Assembly: GCA_964629685.1 (NCBI GenBank)
Contig: CAZVTT010000002.1
Location: 51,468-115,467, forward strand
Source: an uncultured Gammaproteobacteria bacterium
GTDB taxonomy: Bacteria > Patescibacteriota > Microgenomatia > UBA10105 > UBA927
Reading direction: 5' to 3'
DNA length: 64,000 nucleotides
Shown here: in pieces, positions 54,075 through 63,280 of the stretch
How the letters are laid out: each line of letters opens with the position of its first letter
How positions within the stretch are numbered: the stretch's first letter is position 1
Program-made: the position numbers and the translations under genes
Notes under the pieces: generated by a model
The model's input: only the letters and a program-made list of their open reading frames with translations
The model's database searches: none
Told to the model about the DNA's origin: nothing

Positions 54075-54794
54075 TTACAGACCACTCTGGAGCATGGCTT
54101 CTGTTACTTTCTGCATTTTGCCTTCCATAATATCCTCCAGATTGTGCCATGATTTATTGATCCGGTGATCCGTAACACGGTTTTGCGGGTAGTTATACGT
54201 TCTGATTTTTTCCGCCCGCATGCCTTTGCCGATAACACTGCGGCTGTCGCTTAACGTTTGTGAATTCTTTATTTCTTCCGCTTCCCAGAGTTTTGCCCGC
54301 AACATAGACAAAGCTACTTGTCGGTTCTGGAATTGATCCCGTTCGTTGCTGCAGCTCACTACGATACCCGTTGGTTTATGACGCAGGCGTACTGCCGAGC
54401 TGACTTTGTTTACATTCTGGCCGCCGTGACCACCAGCACGATGAAAATCCCATTCCAGATCCTCGTTACGGATGTTAATATCCGTCTCCGGAATTTCCGG
54501 GAGTACCGCTACTGTAGCTGTGGATGTGTGAATCCGCCCCTGTCTTTCCGTGGTGGGTATCCGTTGCACGCGGTGTGTGCCTGCTTCATACTGTAGTTTT
54601 GTGAATACTTCGGGACCCTTTATCCTGATAGCAGTTTCGCTTACTGTACTGACTTTCCAGCCGTTAATGTTGGCATAGCGGTTATACATACGGAGTAGAT
54701 CATCAGCCCAGATTTTAGCTTCCTCACCACCGGGACCTGCTCTAAACTCAAGTATGGCAACATCGGTATTCATAGGATAGTTGTACGCAGACAC
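54075..54794 (-). CDS. prfA: class I peptide chain release factor, RF1-like, lacking N-terminal domain 1 (239 aa)
   Basis: GGQ motif (AGGHGGQNVNKV); RF1-type tripeptide region RVQRIPTTERQGRIHTS (PxT = PTT); RTYNYPQNRVTDHRI. GTG start, in frame with rpmE 12 nt upstream. Confidence 0.75.
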   Translation of the reverse strand: MSAYNYPMNTDVAILEFRAGPGGEEAKIWADDLLRMYNRYANINGWKVSTVSETAIRIKGPEVFTKLQYEAGTHRVQRIPTTERQGRIHTSTATVAVLPEIPETDINIRNEDLEWDFHRAGGHGGQNVNKVSSAVRLRHKPTGIVVSCSNERDQFQNRQVALSMLRAKLWEAEEIKNSQTLSDSRSVIGKGMRAEKIRTYNYPQNRVTDHRINKSWHNLEDIMEGKMQKVTEAMLQSGL

Positions 54795-55169: not shown

Positions 55170-56144
55170 TTATTTCCTGCGTGAATGCTTGGGTTTTTTA
55201 CCTGTTCTCCGTTGCTTTAATTTTTGCCGGCGTTTATATTCTGCCAAAGCCACACCCACAGCAATCAGTACCGCACCGAATATAAAACCTACGGTAACCC
55301 GTTCTCCCAGCCAGAAAAAGGCCAGAGGTGCTGCCCACACGGGGAGCAGATAAGAAAAAATTGCCGCTTCGCCGGCTTCTATATTTTTTAAACCGCGGTG
55401 CCATAGTGTGTACGCTACGGTTCCGGATAGAATCCCCATATACCACACGCCTAAATGAGCAGCAAGCGGAGCTGACACAAGTGCATTCCAGACACCCGGT
55501 GCACCGTGATACCAGACAGCCACGGGTGCTATGGTGGCAAATCCGATCACAAAGCTTAAGTTCGTCATATACAATGGCGACGATTCTTTATTCAGTAATA
55601 CTTTGCTCCAGATAGCCAGAAAAACTCCCAGAAAAACCGACATCAGAACAATAATGTTTCCGGTCATTTCACCCGTAAAATTCTGATGGCTAATATCCGT
55701 CAGCGGCGCAATGATGCTTATACCGGTACCTAATAAGGCAATTATCATACCGATCCGTTCCTGAGAGGTAATTGTTTCATGTAAAAATAATGCTCCCGCA
55801 GCAACGATAAGCAGGGGTTGGACGGCACCCAACACGGTGGCGGATATTGCAGTCGTCTGATCGTATCCGAAAAATAACAAGCCAAGACTAACGGTGGATG
55901 TTAAAAAGCCATATACCAGCATTGATCCGATATTGTTTGGACTGACCCGTTTATTTTGTGTTTGTTTCCGCTCAACAAAAAATGTCAGTATCAGTGCCAG
56001 GGTTGCACTGACGGCAAACCGATAGCTCAGGAATATGAGTGGGGATAGGTCCGAAAGCGTATATTTTATGATCGGACCGGCCGCACCCCAAATCAGGGAC
56101 ACGATAAGTAAATAGATATACGCCTGTATTCTTTTTTGTGACAT
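55170..56144 (-). CDS. EamA-family (DMT superfamily) transporter
   Basis: 10 predicted TM helices; two EamA repeats. Confidence 0.8.
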   Translation of the reverse strand: MSQKRIQAYIYLLIVSLIWGAAGPIIKYTLSDLSPLIFLSYRFAVSATLALILTFFVERKQTQNKRVSPNNIGSMLVYGFLTSTVSLGLLFFGYDQTTAISATVLGAVQPLLIVAAGALFLHETITSQERIGMIIALLGTGISIIAPLTDISHQNFTGEMTGNIIVLMSVFLGVFLAIWSKVLLNKESSPLYMTNLSFVIGFATIAPVAVWYHGAPGVWNALVSAPLAAHLGVWYMGILSGTVAYTLWHRGLKNIEAGEAAIFSYLLPVWAAPLAFFWLGERVTVGFIFGAVLIAVGVALAEYKRRQKLKQRRTGKKPKHSRRK

Positions 56145-56161: not shown

Positions 56162-57379
56162 TTATGAACCGGTTGTAAACCGTTTTATAACGGCGTCAAC
56201 CGCGATCACTTCCTGTTGGTTCGTTTTCATATCTTTTATTTTAAGGACATTCCCGGCCACTTCCTCCGGTCCCTGGATAATGACGTACGGAATGCTTTTT
56301 TTGTCTGCGTATTTCAATTGCTTTTCCAGTTTGGCATCCGGCTGTAAATATATTTCCGTGGAAACCCCCGCACCACGCAGTGCTGCGGTTATTTCCAGTG
56401 CCTGCGGCAGTAAATCCGGTGCAAATATGGTAACCAGAACCTGCGTTTTGGTTGATTGGACTCTGGTTAATTTTAATTCTTCGAGTGCATCCAGTATTCG
56501 GTCAAATCCAAATGCCACACCGATGGCGGGAAGCTCTTTTCCGCTAAATTGTCCTATTAATCGGTCGTAGCGGCCGCCGCCGGCCAATGATCCTCCGGTA
56601 TACGCCGGTACTTTCAATTCAAAAATAGTACTGGTGTAATAATCCAGACCGCGGGCTAAAAACGGATCAAAGCGGAAATCTATATCCCTGCGGAAGCCAC
56701 TGGCTTCCAAAGCCGAAAATATACCGGCTAATCTTTCCGTAATCCGGCTTCCTTCCAATGTGGTAAGGAGGGCTTCGGGATTTTCCCTCCCGGTTTTCCC
56801 TAATTCGGAAATTACCGCAGTGCGGCCTATTTTATCAAGCTTATCGAGAATAATTATTTCCGTTTTCGTCAGTTGCAGTACATCAAAAATGGTGCGGTCA
56901 TTAATAAGCATTATCGGTTGCGGTAAGCCCAATCGTTTAGCCACAGTCAGTACGCATAATATAATTTCGGCATCTGCCAGCGCCGCATCCGTTCCCACCG
57001 TGTCAATATCGCATTGCAGAAACTCACGGTAGCGACCTTTTTGGGTATTTTCCGCACGCCAGACAGGTTGGATTTGGTAGCGTTTAAACGGCAGGGGAAG
57101 TTCCGGATATTGTGCTATAACCCGGGAGAACGGGACTGTTTGATCGTAACGTAATCCTACTTTTCGTTGTCCGTTATCTTCAAAAAGATACAGCAACTTA
57201 TCGGCTTCGCTGCCGTATTTTCCCAATAATGTCTCCGCATATTCCAGCGCCGGCGTTTCCAGCGGATCAAACCCGAATAGTTCAAAAACGGAACGGATGG
57301 TGGAAATTAGCTCCTGCCGTTGAATTGCCATTGGGGGCAGAAAGTCGCGAAATCCTTTTAATGTTTGTGGTTTAATCAT
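56162..57379 (-). CDS. hisS: histidyl-tRNA synthetase
   Basis: LKGFRDFLP; class II motifs; C-terminal anticodon-binding domain. Confidence 0.9.
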   Translation of the reverse strand: MIKPQTLKGFRDFLPPMAIQRQELISTIRSVFELFGFDPLETPALEYAETLLGKYGSEADKLLYLFEDNGQRKVGLRYDQTVPFSRVIAQYPELPLPFKRYQIQPVWRAENTQKGRYREFLQCDIDTVGTDAALADAEIILCVLTVAKRLGLPQPIMLINDRTIFDVLQLTKTEIIILDKLDKIGRTAVISELGKTGRENPEALLTTLEGSRITERLAGIFSALEASGFRRDIDFRFDPFLARGLDYYTSTIFELKVPAYTGGSLAGGGRYDRLIGQFSGKELPAIGVAFGFDRILDALEELKLTRVQSTKTQVLVTIFAPDLLPQALEITAALRGAGVSTEIYLQPDAKLEKQLKYADKKSIPYVIIQGPEEVAGNVLKIKDMKTNQQEVIAVDAVIKRFTTGS

Positions 57380-57420: not shown

Positions 57421-58494
57421 TTATAGTTTAGTCGGTATTTTCGGTGCCTGACTGAGTATTTCTACGCCAGCTGAAGTTAAGCGTACCAAATCCTCAATTC
57501 TGATACCATATTCTCCCTCTACATAAATTCCCGGTTCGACCGAAAAAATCATACCAGTTTCTACTGTTTCATCGTACATTTCTGACAGTCGTGGCCCTTC
57601 ATGAATATCCAATCCGACGTTGTGACCCAGACTATGCGGATAAACCGGAAAACCACGGGCGGTAATTTCCGCTTTGGCAGCTTTGTCTAAAACGGCTCCG
57701 GATCGTTCTCCGTTAGCCAGGAGTTGTAACGCTTTCTCCTGACCAGCGAGAGTGGCTTCATAGGCGCTCATCACTGTCTCCGACGGTGTACCCACAAATA
57801 CCACTCTGGTCATATCGGCACAGTATCCGTTTATGCGTGCACCAAAGTCCATCAGGACTGCCGAATCTTCCTGCAGCGTGCAGTTCCTACGGGGAGCGTA
57901 ATGCGGCTGACTGGCGTTTTTACCGAAGGCCACAATTGGTGCAAATGCCAGCTCCGCATTGCGTTCCTTAAAGTATTTCTCAATCTGCCAGGCTATATAT
58001 GTCTCGGAAACTCCGGGTCGGAGGAGTTCACATATTGCCGCATAACACTCATCAGTAAGGATGCAGGCTTTCCGGATGTGAGCGACTTCGTCATCCCGCT
58101 TTATCATGCGCATACGTTCTATCTGCGGTAATGCCGGCGACCATTGTACCGACGGTAGTTTGGATACCAGTCGGTTGTATTCTGCCACGGTGATTTCCTG
58201 ATCTTCAAAACCTATTTTTTTTATTTGTTCAGCCTCGACTATTTCTGACAATAAAACGGATAATGGTTTACCGGGACCCATTATTTTTACCGTCCAGTCC
58301 TGCTTGTCGGCCGTGAGTTCTTTGGCTTTCTCGGCATAAAGTGGGTTCGTAAAAAGGTACGTTTTATTCTTTCCGATCAGTAACTGAGCCTCCCGATGTC
58401 CTGCTTCCACGGGAATAAATCCACTTAAGTACCGTACGTTGGTTTGATTGCTGACGAGTAGGGCATCTATGTCGGGTAATAATTCGGATTTCAT
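57421..58494 (-). CDS. M24-family Xaa-Pro aminopeptidase/prolidase
   Basis: HSLGHNVGLDIHE; VEPGIYVEGEYGIRIED metal-ligand blocks. Confidence 0.85.
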   Translation of the reverse strand: MKSELLPDIDALLVSNQTNVRYLSGFIPVEAGHREAQLLIGKNKTYLFTNPLYAEKAKELTADKQDWTVKIMGPGKPLSVLLSEIVEAEQIKKIGFEDQEITVAEYNRLVSKLPSVQWSPALPQIERMRMIKRDDEVAHIRKACILTDECYAAICELLRPGVSETYIAWQIEKYFKERNAELAFAPIVAFGKNASQPHYAPRRNCTLQEDSAVLMDFGARINGYCADMTRVVFVGTPSETVMSAYEATLAGQEKALQLLANGERSGAVLDKAAKAEITARGFPVYPHSLGHNVGLDIHEGPRLSEMYDETVETGMIFSVEPGIYVEGEYGIRIEDLVRLTSAGVEILSQAPKIPTKL

Positions 58495-58512
58495 ATACCT
58501 ATTGTACGTGGT

Positions 58513-59217
58513 TTACCTCAGCTTCTCCAGCACTTCCTGGCAGGAAATTTGCGTATACAGCGCAAACGGCTGTTTATAGTAATATGCCCATTCCCGGTCG
58601 CCGTACGAGAAATGCCACCACTCTCCGTCAAAAGGTGCAAACCCTTCCTGCATCAGCACTGATCTGAGCAGTAAACGGTTGACTCGTTCATTTGCTGTTA
58701 AATCGGGTGAAAACGTATAACACCGTTTGGTGGAATAGTCATACATTTCCGACCCGAAATGGAGTGGCTGCGAATTGGTACGATTTCTGATATATATATC
58801 GACGGCGCCCCCGGTCGGATGTCCCGCCACGGTCGGAACGGCGACACGCCTGTGGGCAGTTTCATATAAAGTTACCGGGTCGGAATTCCAGTCCGACTGT
58901 ATTACGGAACATAATTGCTCTTTGAACCGTTGCTCCTGAAATTCCAATGTCCTGTACCCGAATGCAACGTACAGTTCCAAATCGGGATTTGTTTTGGTTA
59001 ACCGTTGCTGCGCTCTTTTTAGTTTGGCGCGCACTGCGCGGCGGACAATAATTCCCGGTCCAAGTGTATTTTCCTGTGCTTTCATCTGCTTCAGATAGCC
59101 ATTGGCAATGTCACGTGTCGTTAGCCTTACCATCGTTTCACTTTTCGGTATAACCGGAACCATCAGCAGCTCGCTGTACGTCACCATTTGTCGCTCGAGT
59201 TGGGTATACGTATCCAT
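58513..59217 (-). CDS. VanX/DdpX-like D-alanyl-D-alanine dipeptidase (peptidase M15D)
   Basis: AGHPTGGAVDIYI (SxHxxGxAxD) and GEWWHF (EWWH) signatures. Confidence 0.75.
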   Translation of the reverse strand: MDTYTQLERQMVTYSELLMVPVIPKSETMVRLTTRDIANGYLKQMKAQENTLGPGIIVRRAVRAKLKRAQQRLTKTNPDLELYVAFGYRTLEFQEQRFKEQLCSVIQSDWNSDPVTLYETAHRRVAVPTVAGHPTGGAVDIYIRNRTNSQPLHFGSEMYDYSTKRCYTFSPDLTANERVNRLLLRSVLMQEGFAPFDGEWWHFSYGDREWAYYYKQPFALYTQISCQEVLEKLR

Positions 59218-59221
59218 AGTT

Positions 59222-60637
59222 TTATGATTTTTTGGTAAAGAATATCCGTCTGTCGGTTTTTACGGAACCATCTGTGCGTTTGCCTGTTATATCCTGCTGT
59301 ACTCCGGGAATCCGGATAAACCCCAGTGAACGGTAAAGGGATTGGGAAATAATATTATTTTCCGATGTACGCATCACAATCTGTTTACCTGCGAGCGCGT
59401 CCAGTCTGGCTTCCACTAATCGTTTGCCGATACCTTTTTGCCTGCCTGCGTCAGCTACTCCCAGGTCAGCCATATACCAGCCGTCGGCGGATATGTCTGC
59501 GTTAATGATGCTATCGGCTACTTCGGGTACTTCCGTAAGGGGTAAGGCGGCGCCGAATCCGACAATCCCATTTTTCCCTTTAGCCACAAAAAGCAAGCCG
59601 CGCGAGACATATTGTGCAAATATGTCGGATACTTCCGTGTCGGAAAACACTTCTTCATAGGGAGGTTTCCCGAATATTTCCTGATACAACCGATTTAATC
59701 CGCCGCTATTTAATGCGTCCTGCAAAGCCCCTGCATCGGAAACGCGTTCAATGGAAAACGGTTCACCATTGCGGTCAAATTCCAGCTTTCCGCGCTCGAG
59801 TACTTTAACCGGGCCGCTGATTTGGGCATAGCCAAATACATCGTTTCGGTAATCTATCTGTACGTTTATCGGTATACCGGTAGGCTGGATAACCGGCAGA
59901 TTGGTAATTGATTGCTTATTTATGCGTGAAAGCGCCATGCCAAGGGCGGTAGTCCCGCTGCCGCAAGCTGTTTCCAAAAATAGCGTATCTATACTTTTAA
60001 CATAGACTACCGGCGTAATTTGCCACGAATCTCCCTGGCGCTGACTATACATCACCCCTGCAGCCGGGTATTCGGTAAGGCCTTTTTCTCTGATAGTCCG
60101 CATGGCTTTAGCTTTAATGTCTTCCGCGGATAATCCGGATAAACCGGCACTATTAAAATCTATATATTGGGTAATACCTTCCATCTCGACTATGAAATTG
60201 TCCTGACCGGAAGGGGAAACTACATCGGTTCTGACTTTACCGACCTCCGGAAAGATAGGCATTTGAGCGAACGCTTCACCGTTTGTATCTATACCTGCCC
60301 GTAATGTATCCGCGACACCGGATACCGTCAGGGAAAGCGTTCCCGGCTCGCCCCCCAGAGCCAGATACGCAGTAGATCTGGTAGCATTTCCACAAAATTC
60401 ACCGCCTGCCATTTGCAGTCGTTCATTACCCGGAGACAAGTCAATAAATCCGACCTGTTCTATATTCGGATATAACGACATGATGGCATCGTTAAGTGTT
60501 CTCCTAACTTCCGGATCTTCTATAATGCCGTTTATAAGACAGGTATCATTGCCGCCCGGACGGACAATCGTAAAAGAATATTCAGGGCGTTCCGGATTTG
60601 TTACATTCTCCGGTGGTGCTGACTGTTCGGTAACCAT
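59222..60637 (-). CDS. fusion protein: DapF-like PLP-independent epimerase/racemase domain + C-terminal GNAT N-acetyltransferase domain
   Basis: RPGGNDTCLI (GNDF-like), EFCGNATR (first catalytic Cys block CGNGxR), LETACGSGTTALGMA (second Cys block ACGSGA). C-terminal GNAT motif (GKQIVM...QKGIGKRLVEARLD). Confidence 0.65.
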   Translation of the reverse strand: MVTEQSAPPENVTNPERPEYSFTIVRPGGNDTCLINGIIEDPEVRRTLNDAIMSLYPNIEQVGFIDLSPGNERLQMAGGEFCGNATRSTAYLALGGEPGTLSLTVSGVADTLRAGIDTNGEAFAQMPIFPEVGKVRTDVVSPSGQDNFIVEMEGITQYIDFNSAGLSGLSAEDIKAKAMRTIREKGLTEYPAAGVMYSQRQGDSWQITPVVYVKSIDTLFLETACGSGTTALGMALSRINKQSITNLPVIQPTGIPINVQIDYRNDVFGYAQISGPVKVLERGKLEFDRNGEPFSIERVSDAGALQDALNSGGLNRLYQEIFGKPPYEEVFSDTEVSDIFAQYVSRGLLFVAKGKNGIVGFGAALPLTEVPEVADSIINADISADGWYMADLGVADAGRQKGIGKRLVEARLDALAGKQIVMRTSENNIISQSLYRSLGFIRIPGVQQDITGKRTDGSVKTDRRIFFTKKS

Positions 60638-60897
60638 ATAACCTCCTTATCCGCAGAAAAAATAATGGAACTGCGAATAGGGGAAACGGGAACCGATGGA
60701 AGTTGTATTTGTTCAGGACTCACCCACGCGCAGCATTATGCCGTTACGGGGTGATGATGAAAAAACGCAGCAAACGTATCCCCTTGGCGAGGGGAAATAA
60801 ACGGGAGGTAGGGAATACGTTTCGGGAACATGTTAGTATGTTAACATGTTAATACAACTATGTCAAGACCTTCGCCAACTGGATCAGAAGGAATACG

Positions 60898-61215
60898 TTA
60901 TTTCTTTAGAATCCGTTCCGCAGCTTTGGCATAGCCACCCATCCCGTGGCGAAGCCAGTAGGCTACACGGGTTACCGTGGTGGTGGAAACATTCAGCTGT
61001 TTGGCAATTTTTTGATAGGATTGCCCGCGGTTTAATGCTTTTACTATCTGCCAGCGGTTGGCAAATTCCGTAATCTCCGGTAATGTCAGTAAGTCACGAA
61101 AAAAGGCAGCTATTTCTTCTTCAGTTTCCAGAGATTTTACTGCGGTAAACAATTCAGACATGGTAGGTGTGGGGAATTCCGAATGCATACCGGGTGATCG
61201 TTTCATAGTACTCAT
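60898..61215 (-). CDS. TrpR-like YerC/YecD-family DNA-binding protein
   Basis: EEEIAAFFRDLLTLPEITEFANRWQIVKALNRGQSYQKIAKQLNVSTTTVTRVAYWLRHGMGGY. Confidence 0.7.
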   Translation of the reverse strand: MSTMKRSPGMHSEFPTPTMSELFTAVKSLETEEEIAAFFRDLLTLPEITEFANRWQIVKALNRGQSYQKIAKQLNVSTTTVTRVAYWLRHGMGGYAKAAERILKK

Positions 61216-61243: not shown

Positions 61244-62074
61244 TTACGGCGTAGCCGTGGTAGTCGGTTTCGGTGTTGCGCTGGGTTTTGCTGTCGGTGT
61301 CGTTGTGACACTTGTTTTCGTTGTGGGTGCAGGTGTATTGGTGGCAGTTGTAGCTGCTGCCGTGGGAGACGGATTGTCGGAAACCGGGGCTGCTTCAGTT
61401 CCCAGAGCCAGACTGATTATCCGGAGTGCGCTAATCCTATTGTCCTTTTTCGGTACGGGAGTTCCGATAATATGAACCGTATCACCGATATTGAGCTTGG
61501 AAAATCCGGATTTTTCTATACCGCCTGCCTTGGTCCAGCCAAATGTTTTGGTGGATTTTTCAATATCGACGGTGTATGTTTGACCTTCGTGCGTATTTAT
61601 CTGCAGGGTAAAATCATTCTTATCGATAGCAGAAGCTGTACCTGATATCCGAATCGGTTTAGCTCCGGTAATAAAAATGATTTTGGCTTTCATTATTTCC
61701 AGTGTGGTATCAAAATCTCCGAAAACCACAACCGGATCTCCCTGTTCCAGATCATTAATTGTCAGTTTCGTCCGGGTGCCTTTCAGATTTTGGTATACCA
61801 AAATATCATCCGTTAATTCGATCTTAATATCTTTGGTTTTGGTTTCGATGGTAACGGTAGATACGGTTACCGTTTTGACGGTGCCGACCATGGCGCGTTT
61901 CTGGGTTTGTCTGAGTTCTGCGACTTTGGTGGCGAGCCGTTCTTTCAGATCTTCTATCTGTTTCGTTTTTGCGCTGGTAGGGGTAGCTGAAGGCGTCGCG
62001 GTTACCGCGAGTACCGCGGCGCTATGTGCGAGGAGTACGCTGCCGAATACGAATGTAAAAAGTATTTTTTTCAT
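61244..62074 (-). CDS. secreted protein with C-terminal Thr/Pro-rich low-complexity tail
   Basis: Signal peptide MKKILFTFVFGSVLLAHSAAVLA; C-terminal TATNTPAPTTKTSVTTTPTAKPSATPKPTTTATP. Confidence 0.55.
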   Translation of the reverse strand: MKKILFTFVFGSVLLAHSAAVLAVTATPSATPTSAKTKQIEDLKERLATKVAELRQTQKRAMVGTVKTVTVSTVTIETKTKDIKIELTDDILVYQNLKGTRTKLTINDLEQGDPVVVFGDFDTTLEIMKAKIIFITGAKPIRISGTASAIDKNDFTLQINTHEGQTYTVDIEKSTKTFGWTKAGGIEKSGFSKLNIGDTVHIIGTPVPKKDNRISALRIISLALGTEAAPVSDNPSPTAAATTATNTPAPTTKTSVTTTPTAKPSATPKPTTTATP

Positions 62075-62077
62075 ATA

Positions 62078-62536
62078 TTAAAACTCATCAGGCGTGTAAT
62101 ACACCGTTACGCTTTGACTTACCGGTTTGCCGCTGCCGTAACTGGTAACCGTTAAGGCGTTGTCACCTTCCTGGAGGGCAATGGTAGCTGCATATTTCCC
62201 ATCCGCAGTTACGGTAGCCACTTGTTCATCAATATCACTTTGGACAAAAACCGTACTTCCCGGAGGTGTATTTCCGGAAACCAGTACATCGTCTTTATTC
62301 TGAATGGTATCGGTAACCGGACTGTCTATAGAAAACGTGGTTGTTTCAGGCGTAGGTGCAGATACCTTGTTTTCCGTGGCTGAAGGTGCAGTTGCAGTTT
62401 GACTTTTTTGCGGAAAGGCAAACGTGGGGAGCTTAGGCATAGCCTTGAGCACGTTGGGCCCAACCAGCAAAATACCGGTGATACATATGCCGATGCCGAA
62501 ACCTATTACAGAAGCCAGGATTGCGTCCTTATTCAT
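62078..62536 (-). CDS. membrane-anchored protein with Ig-like (Big) C-terminal domain
   Basis: ATG at 62536 chosen (MNKDAILASVIGFGIGICITGILL); the longer track ORF would overlap the MBL gene start. Confidence 0.45.
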   Translation of the reverse strand: MNKDAILASVIGFGIGICITGILLVGPNVLKAMPKLPTFAFPQKSQTATAPSATENKVSAPTPETTTFSIDSPVTDTIQNKDDVLVSGNTPPGSTVFVQSDIDEQVATVTADGKYAATIALQEGDNALTVTSYGSGKPVSQSVTVYYTPDEF

Positions 62537-62623
62537 AACAGCTGAGTTACGCTTGTTCTTTTGCGAGTGTAGGCAGATAATTATGACTCGGTGTTGATTT
62601 AGGATATCGAAATCTGTTATAAA

Positions 62624-63280
62624 ATGCAAGCTATGGATATTACACCACTCGGTCATGCTTCGTTTAAGTTACGCGGAAAATCGGTTACCGTTATTACCGA
62701 TCCCTATGATTCGGACTCTGTCGGGCTTAAATTCCCCAAGAATCTGGAAGCGCAGATTGTAACGGTTTCTCATCAGCATGAGGATCATAACCACACAGCG
62801 CAAATTGGCGGGAATCCTTACATAGTGGGAGGTCCGGGAGAATATGAGATCGCGGGAGTACGTATCGAAGGCTTGTCTACTTTTCATGACGCGGAAAAAG
62901 GCGCTTCCCGAGGGAGAAACACGGTTTACTACATACAGTTAGATAAATTAAATATTTTACATGTCGGGGATTTGGGTCATGCACTTTCGGCGGGAGAAAT
63001 TGAACGGATTGGGGATATAGATATCCTGTTCGTACCGGTCGGCGGTGTGTATACCATTACCGCCAAGCAAGCCGCTGATCTGGTTCACGAAATTGAACCG
63101 TCTGTTGTCATTCCGATGCATTATCAGCGGGAGGGATTAAATCCAAAATCGTTTAGCGAACTTTCACCTGTTACGGAATTTCTCAAAGAAATGGGTAAAG
63201 AAGGTGTTGTTCCGCAAAATAAATTTTCGGTAACCAAAGATAAGCTTCCGGAAGAAATGCAGATTATCGTATTGGAATAA
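62624..63280 (+). CDS. MBL-fold metallo-hydrolase
   Basis: HQHEDHNH (HxHxDH) motif; 218 aa. Confidence 0.85.
   Translation: MQAMDITPLGHASFKLRGKSVTVITDPYDSDSVGLKFPKNLEAQIVTVSHQHEDHNHTAQIGGNPYIVGGPGEYEIAGVRIEGLSTFHDAEKGASRGRNTVYYIQLDKLNILHVGDLGHALSAGEIERIGDIDILFVPVGGVYTITAKQAADLVHEIEPSVVIPMHYQREGLNPKSFSELSPVTEFLKEMGKEGVVPQNKFSVTKDKLPEEMQIIVLE

Follow-up and report, generated by a model that had tools for sequence, protein, structure and literature searches.

Racemases that act on histidine without a cofactor have been described in Staphylococcus aureus (CntK, encoded in the staphylopine cnt cluster) and in Fusobacterium nucleatum (HisR, encoded in the pab neighbourhood). In the latter enzyme the residues N18, E65, G68, N69, E206 and A210/S211 are proposed to hold the alpha-amino group, the alpha-carboxylate and the imidazole of the substrate, and the Glu located two residues before the first catalytic Cys (viz. 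E65) corresponds to an Ala in DapF (PMC11602996). A different protein that is also named HisR belongs to the YerC family of TrpR-like proteins; it includes B. subtilis yerC and is an L-histidine-dependent repressor of his genes, whose operator motifs are lineage-specific (PMC9413887). In the DNA considered here, viz. a stretch of 64,000 nucleotides (nt) of contig CAZVTT010000002.1 that is referred to below as the window, a gene encoding a racemase of the CntK/HisR kind fused to a GNAT N-acetyltransferase (racemase::GNAT) is followed on the minus strand by genes for a VanX-fold zinc amidase of peptidase family M15D and for an M24B Xaa-Pro-type peptidase, with a YerC/HisR-type repressor gene and a leader peptide with a run of His codons lying upstream. 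It is very likely that this operon is linked to histidine and is controlled by histidine starvation. Further, we regard the chances as evenly balanced that the racemase::GNAT, M15 and M24 genes provide the core enzymes of an operon for histidine limitation, which would turn D-histidine (D-His) and small D-His amides into L-histidine (L-His) for histidyl-tRNA synthetase (HisRS).

The racemase domain is most similar, in both sequence and fold, to the two histidine racemases. Its NCBIfam matches are to the HisR model from F. nucleatum (1e-23) and to CntK (1.7e-19), its matches among PDB sequences are to HisR (9cr6, 2e-16) and CntK (6l4l, 1.6e-12; 6jis, ~1e-12), and its precomputed Pfam label is PF26317 CntK_N. 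An AlphaFold2 model of the fusion protein, made with 36 homologs, has a predicted local distance difference test score of 92.1 and a predicted template modelling (TM) score of 0.87, and CntK and HisR occupy the top Foldseek ranks for this model (E 6e-21 to 6e-19, TM 0.73-0.79). DapF ranks below them (E~4e-13, TM ~0.61), and DapF, hydroxyproline epimerase, PhzF and proline racemase are all found at E 4e-13 or worse with TM of about 0.5-0.65. In addition, no Pfam match to DAP_epimerase (PF01678) was obtained at E<=0.01 and no DapF model was matched in NCBIfam. An initial annotation, made from the sequence of the window, had recognised a two-Cys fold independent of pyridoxal phosphate joined to a GNAT domain, and Pfam and Foldseek bear out both fold calls. 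However, its description of the enzyme as DapF-like is too loose, as CntK and HisR rank best by hidden Markov model, by PDB sequence and by Foldseek, with E-values that are 7-8 orders better than that for DapF. A better alignment with PhzF or proline racemase, or the loss of catalytic Cys residues, which the same annotation had considered as an outcome that would undo its assignment, was not seen; those families rank lower, and C82 and C225 are invariant in the 36 homologs (41-65% identity), two catalytic Cys being a trait of the whole superfamily, DapF included.

The motifs GGEFCGNATR and ETACGSGTT are both present in this domain, and N30, E80, C82, N84, E222, C225 and S227 are invariant in the 36 homologs, their counterparts in the HisR racemase being N18, E65, C67, N69, E206, C209 and S211 (mapped through the PDB sequence alignment and PMC11602996). 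The corresponding set of proposed histidine-binding residues, viz. N30, E80, G83, N84, E222 and G226/S227, is likewise invariant or nearly so in these homologs, and the site appears to fit a free amino acid. Although the domain shares with CntK and HisR the best sequence and fold match, both Cys residues and the proposed histidine-binding residues, it is only 23-29% identical to them and it differs in being fused to GNAT and in lying in a histidine-regulated operon with M15 and hisS rather than in the cnt or pab contexts. Judged by its sequence, it probably belongs to the CntK/HisR clade and racemises histidine with two Cys residues and without a cofactor. Because the sequence-similarity network in the paper on the HisR racemase was limited to proteins of 250-308 residues (PMC11602996), fusions such as the one described here would have been missed in it. 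Synthesis of a staphylopine-type metallophore was also considered for the locus and rejected, since CntL/CntM-type domains occur in none of the neighbourhoods.

The distribution of this racemase was studied by scanning one genome per GTDB species, in which an alignment-based query gave at least 566 loci and a single-protein query gave none; the related loci that were collected carry the labels with L-numbers used below. As loci L013-L092 were retrieved by the patterns GGEFCG and ETACGSG, the conservation of these motifs within them is no evidence. A search of 1.84 billion cluster representatives yielded 1,219 clusters (50% identity, E<=1e-10) of racemase-domain relatives, and the racemase::GNAT fusion itself is present in >120 full-length clusters at 90% identity, which come from Gottesman-, Roizman-, Levy- and Peribacteria, Parcubacteria and other members of the Candidate Phyla Radiation (CPR). 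The novelty claimed for an epimerase-GNAT fusion in the initial annotation thus survives this check, because the fusion, although common, carries only generic names in these clusters and no characterised function. The conserved core of the operon is YerC, racemase::GNAT and M15, a combination that recurs in five CPR lineages with otherwise unrelated neighbours, and the racemase::GNAT and M15 genes often overlap by 4 nt in CPR lineages. The racemase is found with M15 and/or HisRS also in Clostridia, Alphaproteobacteria and a metagenome-assembled genome (MAG) of a Micrarchaeota archaeon (L078); HisRS genes lie next to the racemase gene not only in CPR but also in Clostridia, Alphaproteobacteria and other groups. 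The pair hisS-eamA is kept in the CPR loci L001, L013, L014, L016, L030-L032, L038, L044 and L095.

Every pair of module components is linked by gene fusions. Fusions of the types racemase::HisRS and HisRS::racemase occur in L046 and L080, M15::HisG is found in four assemblies (L036, L051, L071 and L091), and racemase::M15, M15::racemase, HisG::racemase and GNAT::racemase are present among the cluster representatives; the racemase, which has fusions with all the other components, is the hub of the module. Genes for tRNA-His(GTG) are located directly upstream of hisS-racemase-(GNAT)-M15::hisG in Lachnospiraceae/Oscillospiraceae MAGs and a rumen MAG (L051:3398-3473; L071:3441-3598, with two in tandem; L091:3253-3329; L034:9-85). 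In one Clostridial type, racemase::GNAT lies between hisZ-hisG and hisIE, with hisS and M15 following, and among 117 neighbour open reading frames (ORFs) the commonest families are HisG, HisZ-like, HisI/HisE and GNAT. In Lactococcus taiwanensis, the racemase gene is placed between a polar-amino-acid ABC transporter and an APC permease. In other loci, one CPR locus included, M15 is replaced by an ArgE/DapE-type M20 deacylase, and this replacement suggests that the job of the partner enzyme is the hydrolysis of a small histidine amide. The ORF of 340 amino acids (aa) that follows the racemase in Clostridia was examined as a possible HisZ, which was rejected, as by Pfam and NCBIfam it is an ArgE/DapE-type M20 deacylase. 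Within a sample of 80 loci, GNAT is present only where M15 is also present, and many loci with a racemase and a hydrolase are without GNAT. The HisRS copies next to the racemase show no systematic change in their histidine-binding motifs. A stand-alone ORF for an anticodon-binding domain in L037 was considered as a tRNA-binding component and rejected, the simpler explanation being a remnant of a deleted hisS.

Two features upstream of the racemase gene bear on the control of the operon, viz. a short ORF with consecutive His codons and a promoter overlapped by repeats. Short ORFs encoding HHH are present on the sense strand upstream of the racemase gene in 20 of 78 unique racemase loci, the corresponding figures being 2 for the antisense strand and, on average, 0.05 for shuffled sequences. 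The related leader peptides in CPR contain ..ILHHHPLVAG, ..NNHHHHAISEVI and ..QNHHHEPA, and those of Clostridia are of the form MKL.IFLNQLHHHRRSL. The leader of ~200 nt in the window folds with -58.5 kcal/mol (z = -3.97 versus shuffles), and its stem proximal to the Shine-Dalgarno (SD) sequence covaries in L001 (TTCGTAGG/CCTGCGAA) and in L024. Four-segment attenuators with T-run terminators are clear in L005, L018, L038, L044 and other relatives, where the His codons are followed directly by segment 1, segment 2 is located at the stop codon of the leader, and the last two segments (3 and 4) pair to give a GC hairpin, with a T-run just before the racemase gene; from this layout, read-through is predicted when ribosomes stall for want of His-tRNA. 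The leader in the window has what may be called an attenuator architecture, with an SD-proximal hairpin in the place of the T-run terminator, and it may act as a switch. It resembles the leader-peptide attenuators of his operons (RF00514 and Firmicute variants) in having an ORF with a run of His codons, hairpins after it that may be alternative to each other and, in many relatives, a terminator, but it differs from them in that only three His codons are present and that it occurs in CPR bacteria in front of a racemase operon.

The ATG of the leader peptide in the window lies 6 nt past the -10 hexamer (TAACAT ACTAAC ATG), a spacing that is the same in L011 and is 10-14 nt in other CPR loci; because the ATG is so near the -10 hexamer, the peptide may be made from a leaderless or near-leaderless mRNA without an SD sequence. 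In five CPR loci, a YerC/HisR-like ORF ends in a His-rich tail that runs into the hairpin/terminator upstream of the racemase gene (L007:5525-5920, L009:5550-5921, L027:1182-1478, L049:4562-4912 and L064:2648-2965). Examples of such tails are ..LHHHRR and ..KRHHHTSLVAV, each followed by the stop, and ..GHHHEAAIS.., and since the HHH tail of YerC enters the hairpin/terminator, the 3' end of the repressor gene seems to double here as the attenuator leader.

The TrpR-like YerC gene, located 260 nt upstream of the racemase::GNAT gene, had been proposed in the initial annotation as the likely regulator, and this proposal has been strengthened, as the gene adjoins the racemase gene in most, indeed nearly all, of the CPR loci and the promoter is overlapped by a conserved repeat that resembles an operator. 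YerC passes the cutoff of the NCBIfam model YerC/YecD (TIGR02531; 63 bits versus 42.2), which makes it the only part of the module that reaches a curated equivalog threshold, and its closest PDB structure is 3g1c, the HisR repressor of E. eligens (1.9e-12). The promoter, TTGACA-17-TG-TAACAT, is the best sigma-70 match of the region (10/12 plus the TG), and operator-like 8-nt repeats, TATTAACATGTTAACATACTAACATGTT, overlap it at 60854-60827, the three repeats reading TTAACATG, TTAACATA and CTAACATG. In 12 or more CPR loci this motif is found at the equivalent position; a degenerate 14-mer derived from it has 15 matches in 1.72 Mb of loci, of which all but one (14/15) lie 137-252 nt upstream of a racemase gene, and in the window the palindrome TTAACATGTTAA has a single exact occurrence. 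It is these repeats that YerC would be expected to bind. The arrangement is similar to the Firmicute HisR (YerC) regulon in that a regulator of the same family stands by histidine-related genes with an operator-like palindrome over the promoter; however, the Firmicute repressor targets his biosynthesis or a histidine transporter and the target here is neither (PMC9413887). Further, the Firmicute HisR operator cacTTTAnnnnnnTAAAgtg is absent from the promoter, where the lineage-conserved repeat is found instead, and the 8-nt repeats of the TTAACRYGTTAAC type in the window are unlike that consensus and closer to the centre of the TrpR operator, GTTAAC. A second TrpR-like gene was observed in L005:209-4097 (Roizmanbacteria), by a fusion of tRNA_edit (YbaK-like) with a class-Ib aminoacyl-tRNA synthetase and a PALP enzyme, which suggests a separate amino-acid-responsive unit, perhaps for tryptophan.

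Table 1. Genes, protein domains and control elements of the racemase::GNAT locus, in positions of the window
Feature	Positions	Strand	Details
YerC/HisR-type TrpR-family repressor gene	60898-61215	minus	105 aa; Pfam Trp_repressor 6.4e-21
Promoter and operator-like repeats	60827-60866	minus	-35 TTGACA 60866-60861; TG-extended -10 TAACAT 60843-60838
Leader peptide ORF, MFPKRIPYLPFISPRQGDTFAAFFHHHPVTA then stop	60736-60831	minus	31 aa, ends FFHHHPVTA; His codons CAT CAT CAC at 60759-60751
Structured leader RNA	60642-60753	minus	two hairpins and SD
Hairpin CACCCCG/CGTGGGTG	60753-60747 / 60728-60721	minus	begins in last His codon
Hairpin TATTCGCAG/CTGCGGATA	60679-60671 / 60656-60648	minus	abuts SD AAGGAGG (60648-60642)
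Racemase::GNAT fusion gene	59222-60637	minus	471 aa
Racemase domain, residues ~17-290	59768-60589	minus	two-Cys cofactor-independent, histidine-racemase-like
GNAT N-acetyltransferase domain, residues ~296-471	59225-59752	minus	Pfam Acetyltransf_1 4.9e-10
M15D VanX-fold zinc amidase gene	58513-59217	minus	234 aa
M24B Xaa-Pro-type peptidase gene	57421-58494	minus	357 aa; Pfam Peptidase_M24 3.7e-59 and Creatinase_N
Histidyl-tRNA synthetase gene (hisS)	56162-57379	minus	405 aa; Pfam tRNA-synt_His and HGTP_anticodon; canonical HisRS motifs
EamA/DMT-family transporter gene	55170-56144	minus	324 aa; Pfam EamA 4.4e-38

The features of the locus are listed in Table 1. The three co-directional ORFs and the gaps of 4 nt (racemase::GNAT to M15) and 18 nt (M15 to M24) are found in the ORF list exactly as had been described, and the same strand continues with hisS at 41 nt 3' of M24 and eamA at 17 nt 3' of hisS, beyond which rpmE and then a release-factor gene follow. 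The calls of a VanX-like M15D peptidase and of an M24 peptidase also hold, both Pfam domains scoring above their cutoffs. As to the motifs that had been cited, CGNATR, ACGSGT and EWWH are present, but the Ser of SxHxxGxAxD is replaced by Gly/Ala, the metal motif of M15 reading AGHPTGGAVD. The M15 protein matches Peptidase_M15 (PF01427) with 52.4 bits (cutoff 27) and has the VanX fold, and its catalytic set, viz. the zinc ligands H133, D140 and H202 together with E199 and R89, is entirely invariant. It misses, however, the VanX/DdpX equivalog cutoffs of NCBIfam (39.1 versus 320 bits and 42.8 versus 176), and it differs from VanX/DdpX (MEROPS M15D) in being 18-20% identical to them, in the replacement of VanX D68 by Tyr/Phe and of S114 by Ala, and in its invariant blocks beyond those of VanX (E119, H122 and GD(R/K)EWAxYY). 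It never adjoins van or ddp genes, but adjoins or is fused to a histidine racemase or HisG. The ~1,500 homologs of this subfamily bear generic names throughout. M15 represents a distinct subfamily of the VanX fold and is predicted to be a zinc amidase for a dipeptide-sized substrate, and the genomic context argues for a histidine-containing substrate over D-Ala-D-Ala.

These results also bear on the pathway that was suggested in the initial annotation, where a DapF-like epimerase, GNAT and a VanX-like dipeptidase would serve in D-Ala-D-Ala or peptidoglycan-fragment salvage or in the detoxification of D-peptides. The VanX fold is the one feature in favour of this explanation, which we consider very improbable, as the racemase lacks a Pfam DAP_epimerase match and DapF ranks well below the histidine racemases, the VanX/DdpX equivalog cutoffs are widely missed, and no cell-wall genes are consistently linked. 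The context consists instead of the His-codon leader, the HisR-type repressor, hisS, tRNA-His and the fusions with HisG and HisRS. The inclusion of M24 in the cluster must likewise be revised. The protein scores 200 bits with Peptidase_M24 and 70 bits with Creatinase_N, without reaching the M24 equivalog cutoffs of NCBIfam (174 versus 393 and 150 versus 630 bits). Its position in the window is shared only by the close relatives L093/L094; in L095, L001 and L019 it is located upstream or kilobases off, and other lineages lack it. Because its position is kept only in the closest relatives, M24 is a lineage-specific accessory, which falls outside the core conserved across CPR loci.

The GNAT domain matches Acetyltransf_1 with 40.1 bits (cutoff 20.7) over residues 325-440 of the fusion protein, and it contains the acetyl-CoA motif RQKGIGKRL at residues 399-407 and the invariant residues PPY-E-F, Y388, R423, T424, N428, D462 and R464. 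The best PDB matches of its profile are N-alpha-acetyltransferases, viz. Naa30, Naa50, an archaeal NAT and RimI, and the RimI model TIGR01575 is not reached (20.4 versus 86.4 bits). The AlphaFold2 model has a single GNAT of ~175 residues after the racemase domain. In L095:3923-5632, from a relative with 55% identity, genes for a separate GNAT of 140 aa, M24 and a DUF2007 protein stand between YerC and racemase::GNAT, and due to this extra GNAT it is seen that a second acetyltransferase can belong to the unit. In the vertebrate N-acetylhistidine cycle, formed by HisAT/NAT16 and anserinase, a GNAT also carries out the N-alpha-acetylation of histidine and a metallo-amidase reverses it; however, HisAT acts on L-His without a racemase and the GNAT in the window has no specific similarity to it (PMC12219266). 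Homology with HisAT/NAT16 was rejected, since that enzyme is a double-GNAT in which histidine is bound between the two domains and the GNAT here is single (PMC12219266).

The similarity of the GNAT domain to RimI/Naa-type enzymes, together with the tight linkage of the module to hisS and tRNA-His genes, can be accommodated by a quality control of D-His-tRNA(His). According to this explanation, GNAT would acetylate mischarged D-His-tRNA, a peptidyl-tRNA hydrolase would free N-acetyl-D-His, M15 would deacetylate it and the racemase would return L-His, so that the succession of GNAT and M15 would make sense. It is, however, wholly speculative and highly improbable, as no tRNA-binding element was identified in the module, and the invariant Arg and acidic residues of GNAT fit a free amino-acid acceptor equally well. 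The profile of GNAT also matches, weakly, the phosphinothricin/MddA-type acetyltransferases, which is in accordance with a protection of HisRS from antimetabolites of histidine or mimics of histidyl-adenylate, where GNAT would acetylate the toxic amino group (cf. MccE/RimL and microcin C), M15 or M20 would cleave the compound and extra HisRS would be induced. An inhibitor of HisRS would trigger exactly this control by uncharged tRNA-His; two HisRS genes are present in some Clostridial loci, and S66 (MccF-family) peptidases occur twice among the neighbours. Against it, we know of no HisRS-targeting toxin of this kind, the HisG fusions are left unexplained, and no role is given to the racemase, a component that exceeds all others in conservation and in frequency of fusion; the likelihood of such a defence is therefore very small.

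The reading that we prefer is a histidine-limitation operon. In this operon, transcription would start from the sigma-70-type promoter under the control of the neighbouring YerC/HisR-type repressor, with L-His as the corepressor, and expression should also respond to charged tRNA-His via ribosome stalling, a response which is expected because the leader encodes a peptide ending in three His codons and a short tail. As this regulatory layout predicts expression at low histidine or low charged tRNA-His, the products of the operon should raise the supply of L-His to HisRS. When the charging of His-tRNA is low, M15 would free D-His from a small amide (N-acyl-D-His or an X-D-His dipeptide), a part that an ArgE-type M20 deacylase would play on N-acyl amino acids, and the racemase would then turn D-His into L-His, which is used by HisRS. 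M24, where present, would add amino acids from X-Pro peptides as a form of general peptide salvage. GNAT, which is fused to the racemase in both orders and is dependent on M15, would N-acetylate the histidine released by the racemase, in the simplest case D-His, and together GNAT and M15 would act as a shunt that buffers free D-His. The order of the genes, the folds, the catalytic residues, the conserved linkage, the fusions and the His-codon leaders are observed, and we infer in this scheme the substrates, the direction of flux, the role of GNAT and the switching of the leader in the window. The salvage direction from D to L has, in our judgement, about the same chance of being right as of being wrong, and the specific shunt of acetylation by GNAT and deacetylation by M15 is rather doubtful.

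A number of points weigh against this reading. The racemase misses the curated equivalog cutoffs of NCBIfam (HisR, 84.4 versus 400 bits; CntK, 70.3 versus 300), and as these scores are so far below the cutoffs its specificity for histidine is only predicted. To our knowledge, no natural source of D-His amides has been described, and an acetyltransferase for D-His and an amidase for N-acetyl-D-His would seem a futile pair when co-expressed. ArgE-like M20 enzymes are normally L-specific, and with an L-specific hydrolase the racemase is not needed. The Asp aligned to VanX D142, which we take to recognise the ammonium group of the dipeptide, is kept in M15 and would favour a dipeptide over an N-acetyl substrate, a point to which we give little weight. 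The check for histidine biosynthesis was confined to the 64 kb window. In addition, the leader in the window has an SD-proximal hairpin and no canonical T-run terminator, the ribosome-masking folds, computed for this leader and for 15 related ones, left the switching ambiguous, and neither the window nor any of 13 related loci has an Rfam match at the gathering threshold, be it to His_leader (RF00514), T-box or another family.

The component set of GNAT, racemase and metallo-deacylase in one operon can also be matched with an acetyl-CoA-driven stereoinversion, similar to the N-succinylamino-acid racemase (NSAR) pathway of Geobacillus. That pathway, reportedly described by Sakai and colleagues in 2006, is said to convert D- to L-amino acids with an operon for a GNAT acyltransferase, the racemase and a metallo-deacylase. 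In an analogous process here, GNAT would acetylate D-His, the racemase would act on N-acetyl-His and a stereospecific deacylase would free L-His, making the conversion from D to L irreversible. Induction at histidine shortage fits this direction, ArgE/DapE-type deacylases replace M15 in some loci, and fusions of the racemase with GNAT and with M15 exist. However, the NSAR racemase is an enolase-superfamily enzyme working on N-acyl amino acids, whereas the racemase of the window has the DapF/CntK fold, apparently for a free alpha-amino group, and the NSAR deacylase is an M20 enzyme, whereas that of the module is usually M15. M15 enzymes cleave amides with the nitrogen of the D residue, so that D-His and not L-His would be released; CntK and HisR work on free histidine; and many loci with the racemase and a hydrolase are without GNAT. 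Further, N30 and E222 are invariant, and their HisR equivalents are proposed to bind the free alpha-amino group (PMC11602996). Based on these considerations, stereoinversion of this kind is unlikely.

The opposite, biosynthetic direction is also to be considered, in which the racemase would make D-His and GNAT would convert it to N-acetyl- or N-acyl-D-His as a metabolite, signal, metal ligand or store, with EamA possibly exporting the product and M15 recycling it or giving immunity. For this it can be said that CntK supplies D-His for staphylopine, that the order of the domains, racemase then GNAT, fits product channelling, that GNAT is always accompanied by an amidase of the D-specific type, and that the EamA-family transporter is conserved beside hisS. 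However, by the logic of the leader and repressor the operon should be induced during histidine shortage, when a drain on L-His would be ill-timed, and through its fusions with HisRS and HisG the racemase is linked to the supply of histidine. In addition, the neighbours include no CntL/CntM-type domains and GNAT is absent from many loci with the racemase and M15. We therefore think it improbable that the operon works in this direction.

The individual parts of the locus are of known kinds, viz. the CntK/HisR racemase clade, GNAT, M15D, M24B, the HisR repressor family and leader-peptide attenuation. In a search of the available literature, no paper was found that links CntK-like racemases with GNAT, M15, hisS or CPR bacteria, and no description was found of a racemase, an acetyltransferase and a VanX-like amidase assembled under dual histidine control, nor of the HisRS and HisG fusions of the module or its spread over CPR, a DPANN (Micrarchaeota) MAG and Clostridia. 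The biochemical logic of the module is potentially new. As a tentative proposal, which is more likely to fail than to hold, D-His could be a physiological currency of histidine, handled by a cycle of three enzymes (a racemase, a D-His N-acetyltransferase and a VanX-fold or ArgE-like amidase for N-acyl- or peptidyl-D-His) that belongs to the regulon for histidine starvation in CPR bacteria, in many gut Clostridia and in at least one DPANN (Micrarchaeota) MAG. This cycle would be coupled by fusions to HisRS and HisG, and in CPR it would be under a new class of His-codon attenuator and a HisR-type repressor. If this is true, histidine metabolism gains a branch centred on D-His and its acetylated or peptidyl derivative, which is present in hundreds of species (the loci from at least 566 GTDB species), and a large subfamily now annotated as D-Ala-D-Ala dipeptidase moves from cell-wall to histidine chemistry. 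It would also provide, in the repressor operator and the leader-peptide attenuator, a concrete and testable circuit responsive to amino acids, among the first for CPR bacteria, whose physiology is otherwise mostly inferred from missing pathways. In addition, it bears on the question, raised for HisR of F. nucleatum, of the purpose of cofactor-independent histidine racemases outside metallophore synthesis.

Several other observations were made in the window and in the related loci. The release-factor gene of the window (54075-54794, minus strand) encodes only 239 aa and that in L001:13830-14528 encodes 232 aa; the gene of the window has PCRF and RF-1 domains and a GTG start, and it could be a truncated class-I factor without the N-terminal domain, or a prfB that needs a frameshift. 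Upstream of YerC, a block is syntenic in the Microgenomates lineage (window 61244-63280; L001:742-2668; L093:172-2163; L095:1514-3536), which consists of a Lactamase_B_3 protein, a Big_6/Glucodextran_B protein and a secreted Thr/Pro-rich protein of ~255-276 aa without a Pfam match. Two HisRS-like ORFs of ~700 aa that adjoin the racemase, in L086:2784-4871 and L058:7167-9323 (minus strand), carry an N-terminal extension of ~270-285 aa; the extension has no Pfam match, no anticodon-binding domain was detected in these ORFs, and in that of L058 the RGLDYY motif deviates to VRDMNYY. In Clostridial clusters, M15 is followed by a conserved protein of ~225 aa (L033:9294-9968, L035:6341-7057, L045:7252-7935 and L037:7246-7590), which is 49% identical between L033 and L045, has the motif WGNAYxWTTE..RGG, no NCBIfam match and a faint FGE-sulfatase-like Pfam match (E=0.04), and which may be a further component of the module. 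In Clostridial loci with the MKL..HHHRRSL leader, an HD-domain protein of ~355 aa comes after the racemase and the M20 deacylase (L092:5981-7048 and L089:7203-8271). Lastly, a fusion of a TIR domain with an S-adenosylmethionine-dependent methyltransferase (453 aa; L051:1747-3108) lies just upstream of the tRNA-His/hisS cluster and is probably an unrelated defence-type gene.

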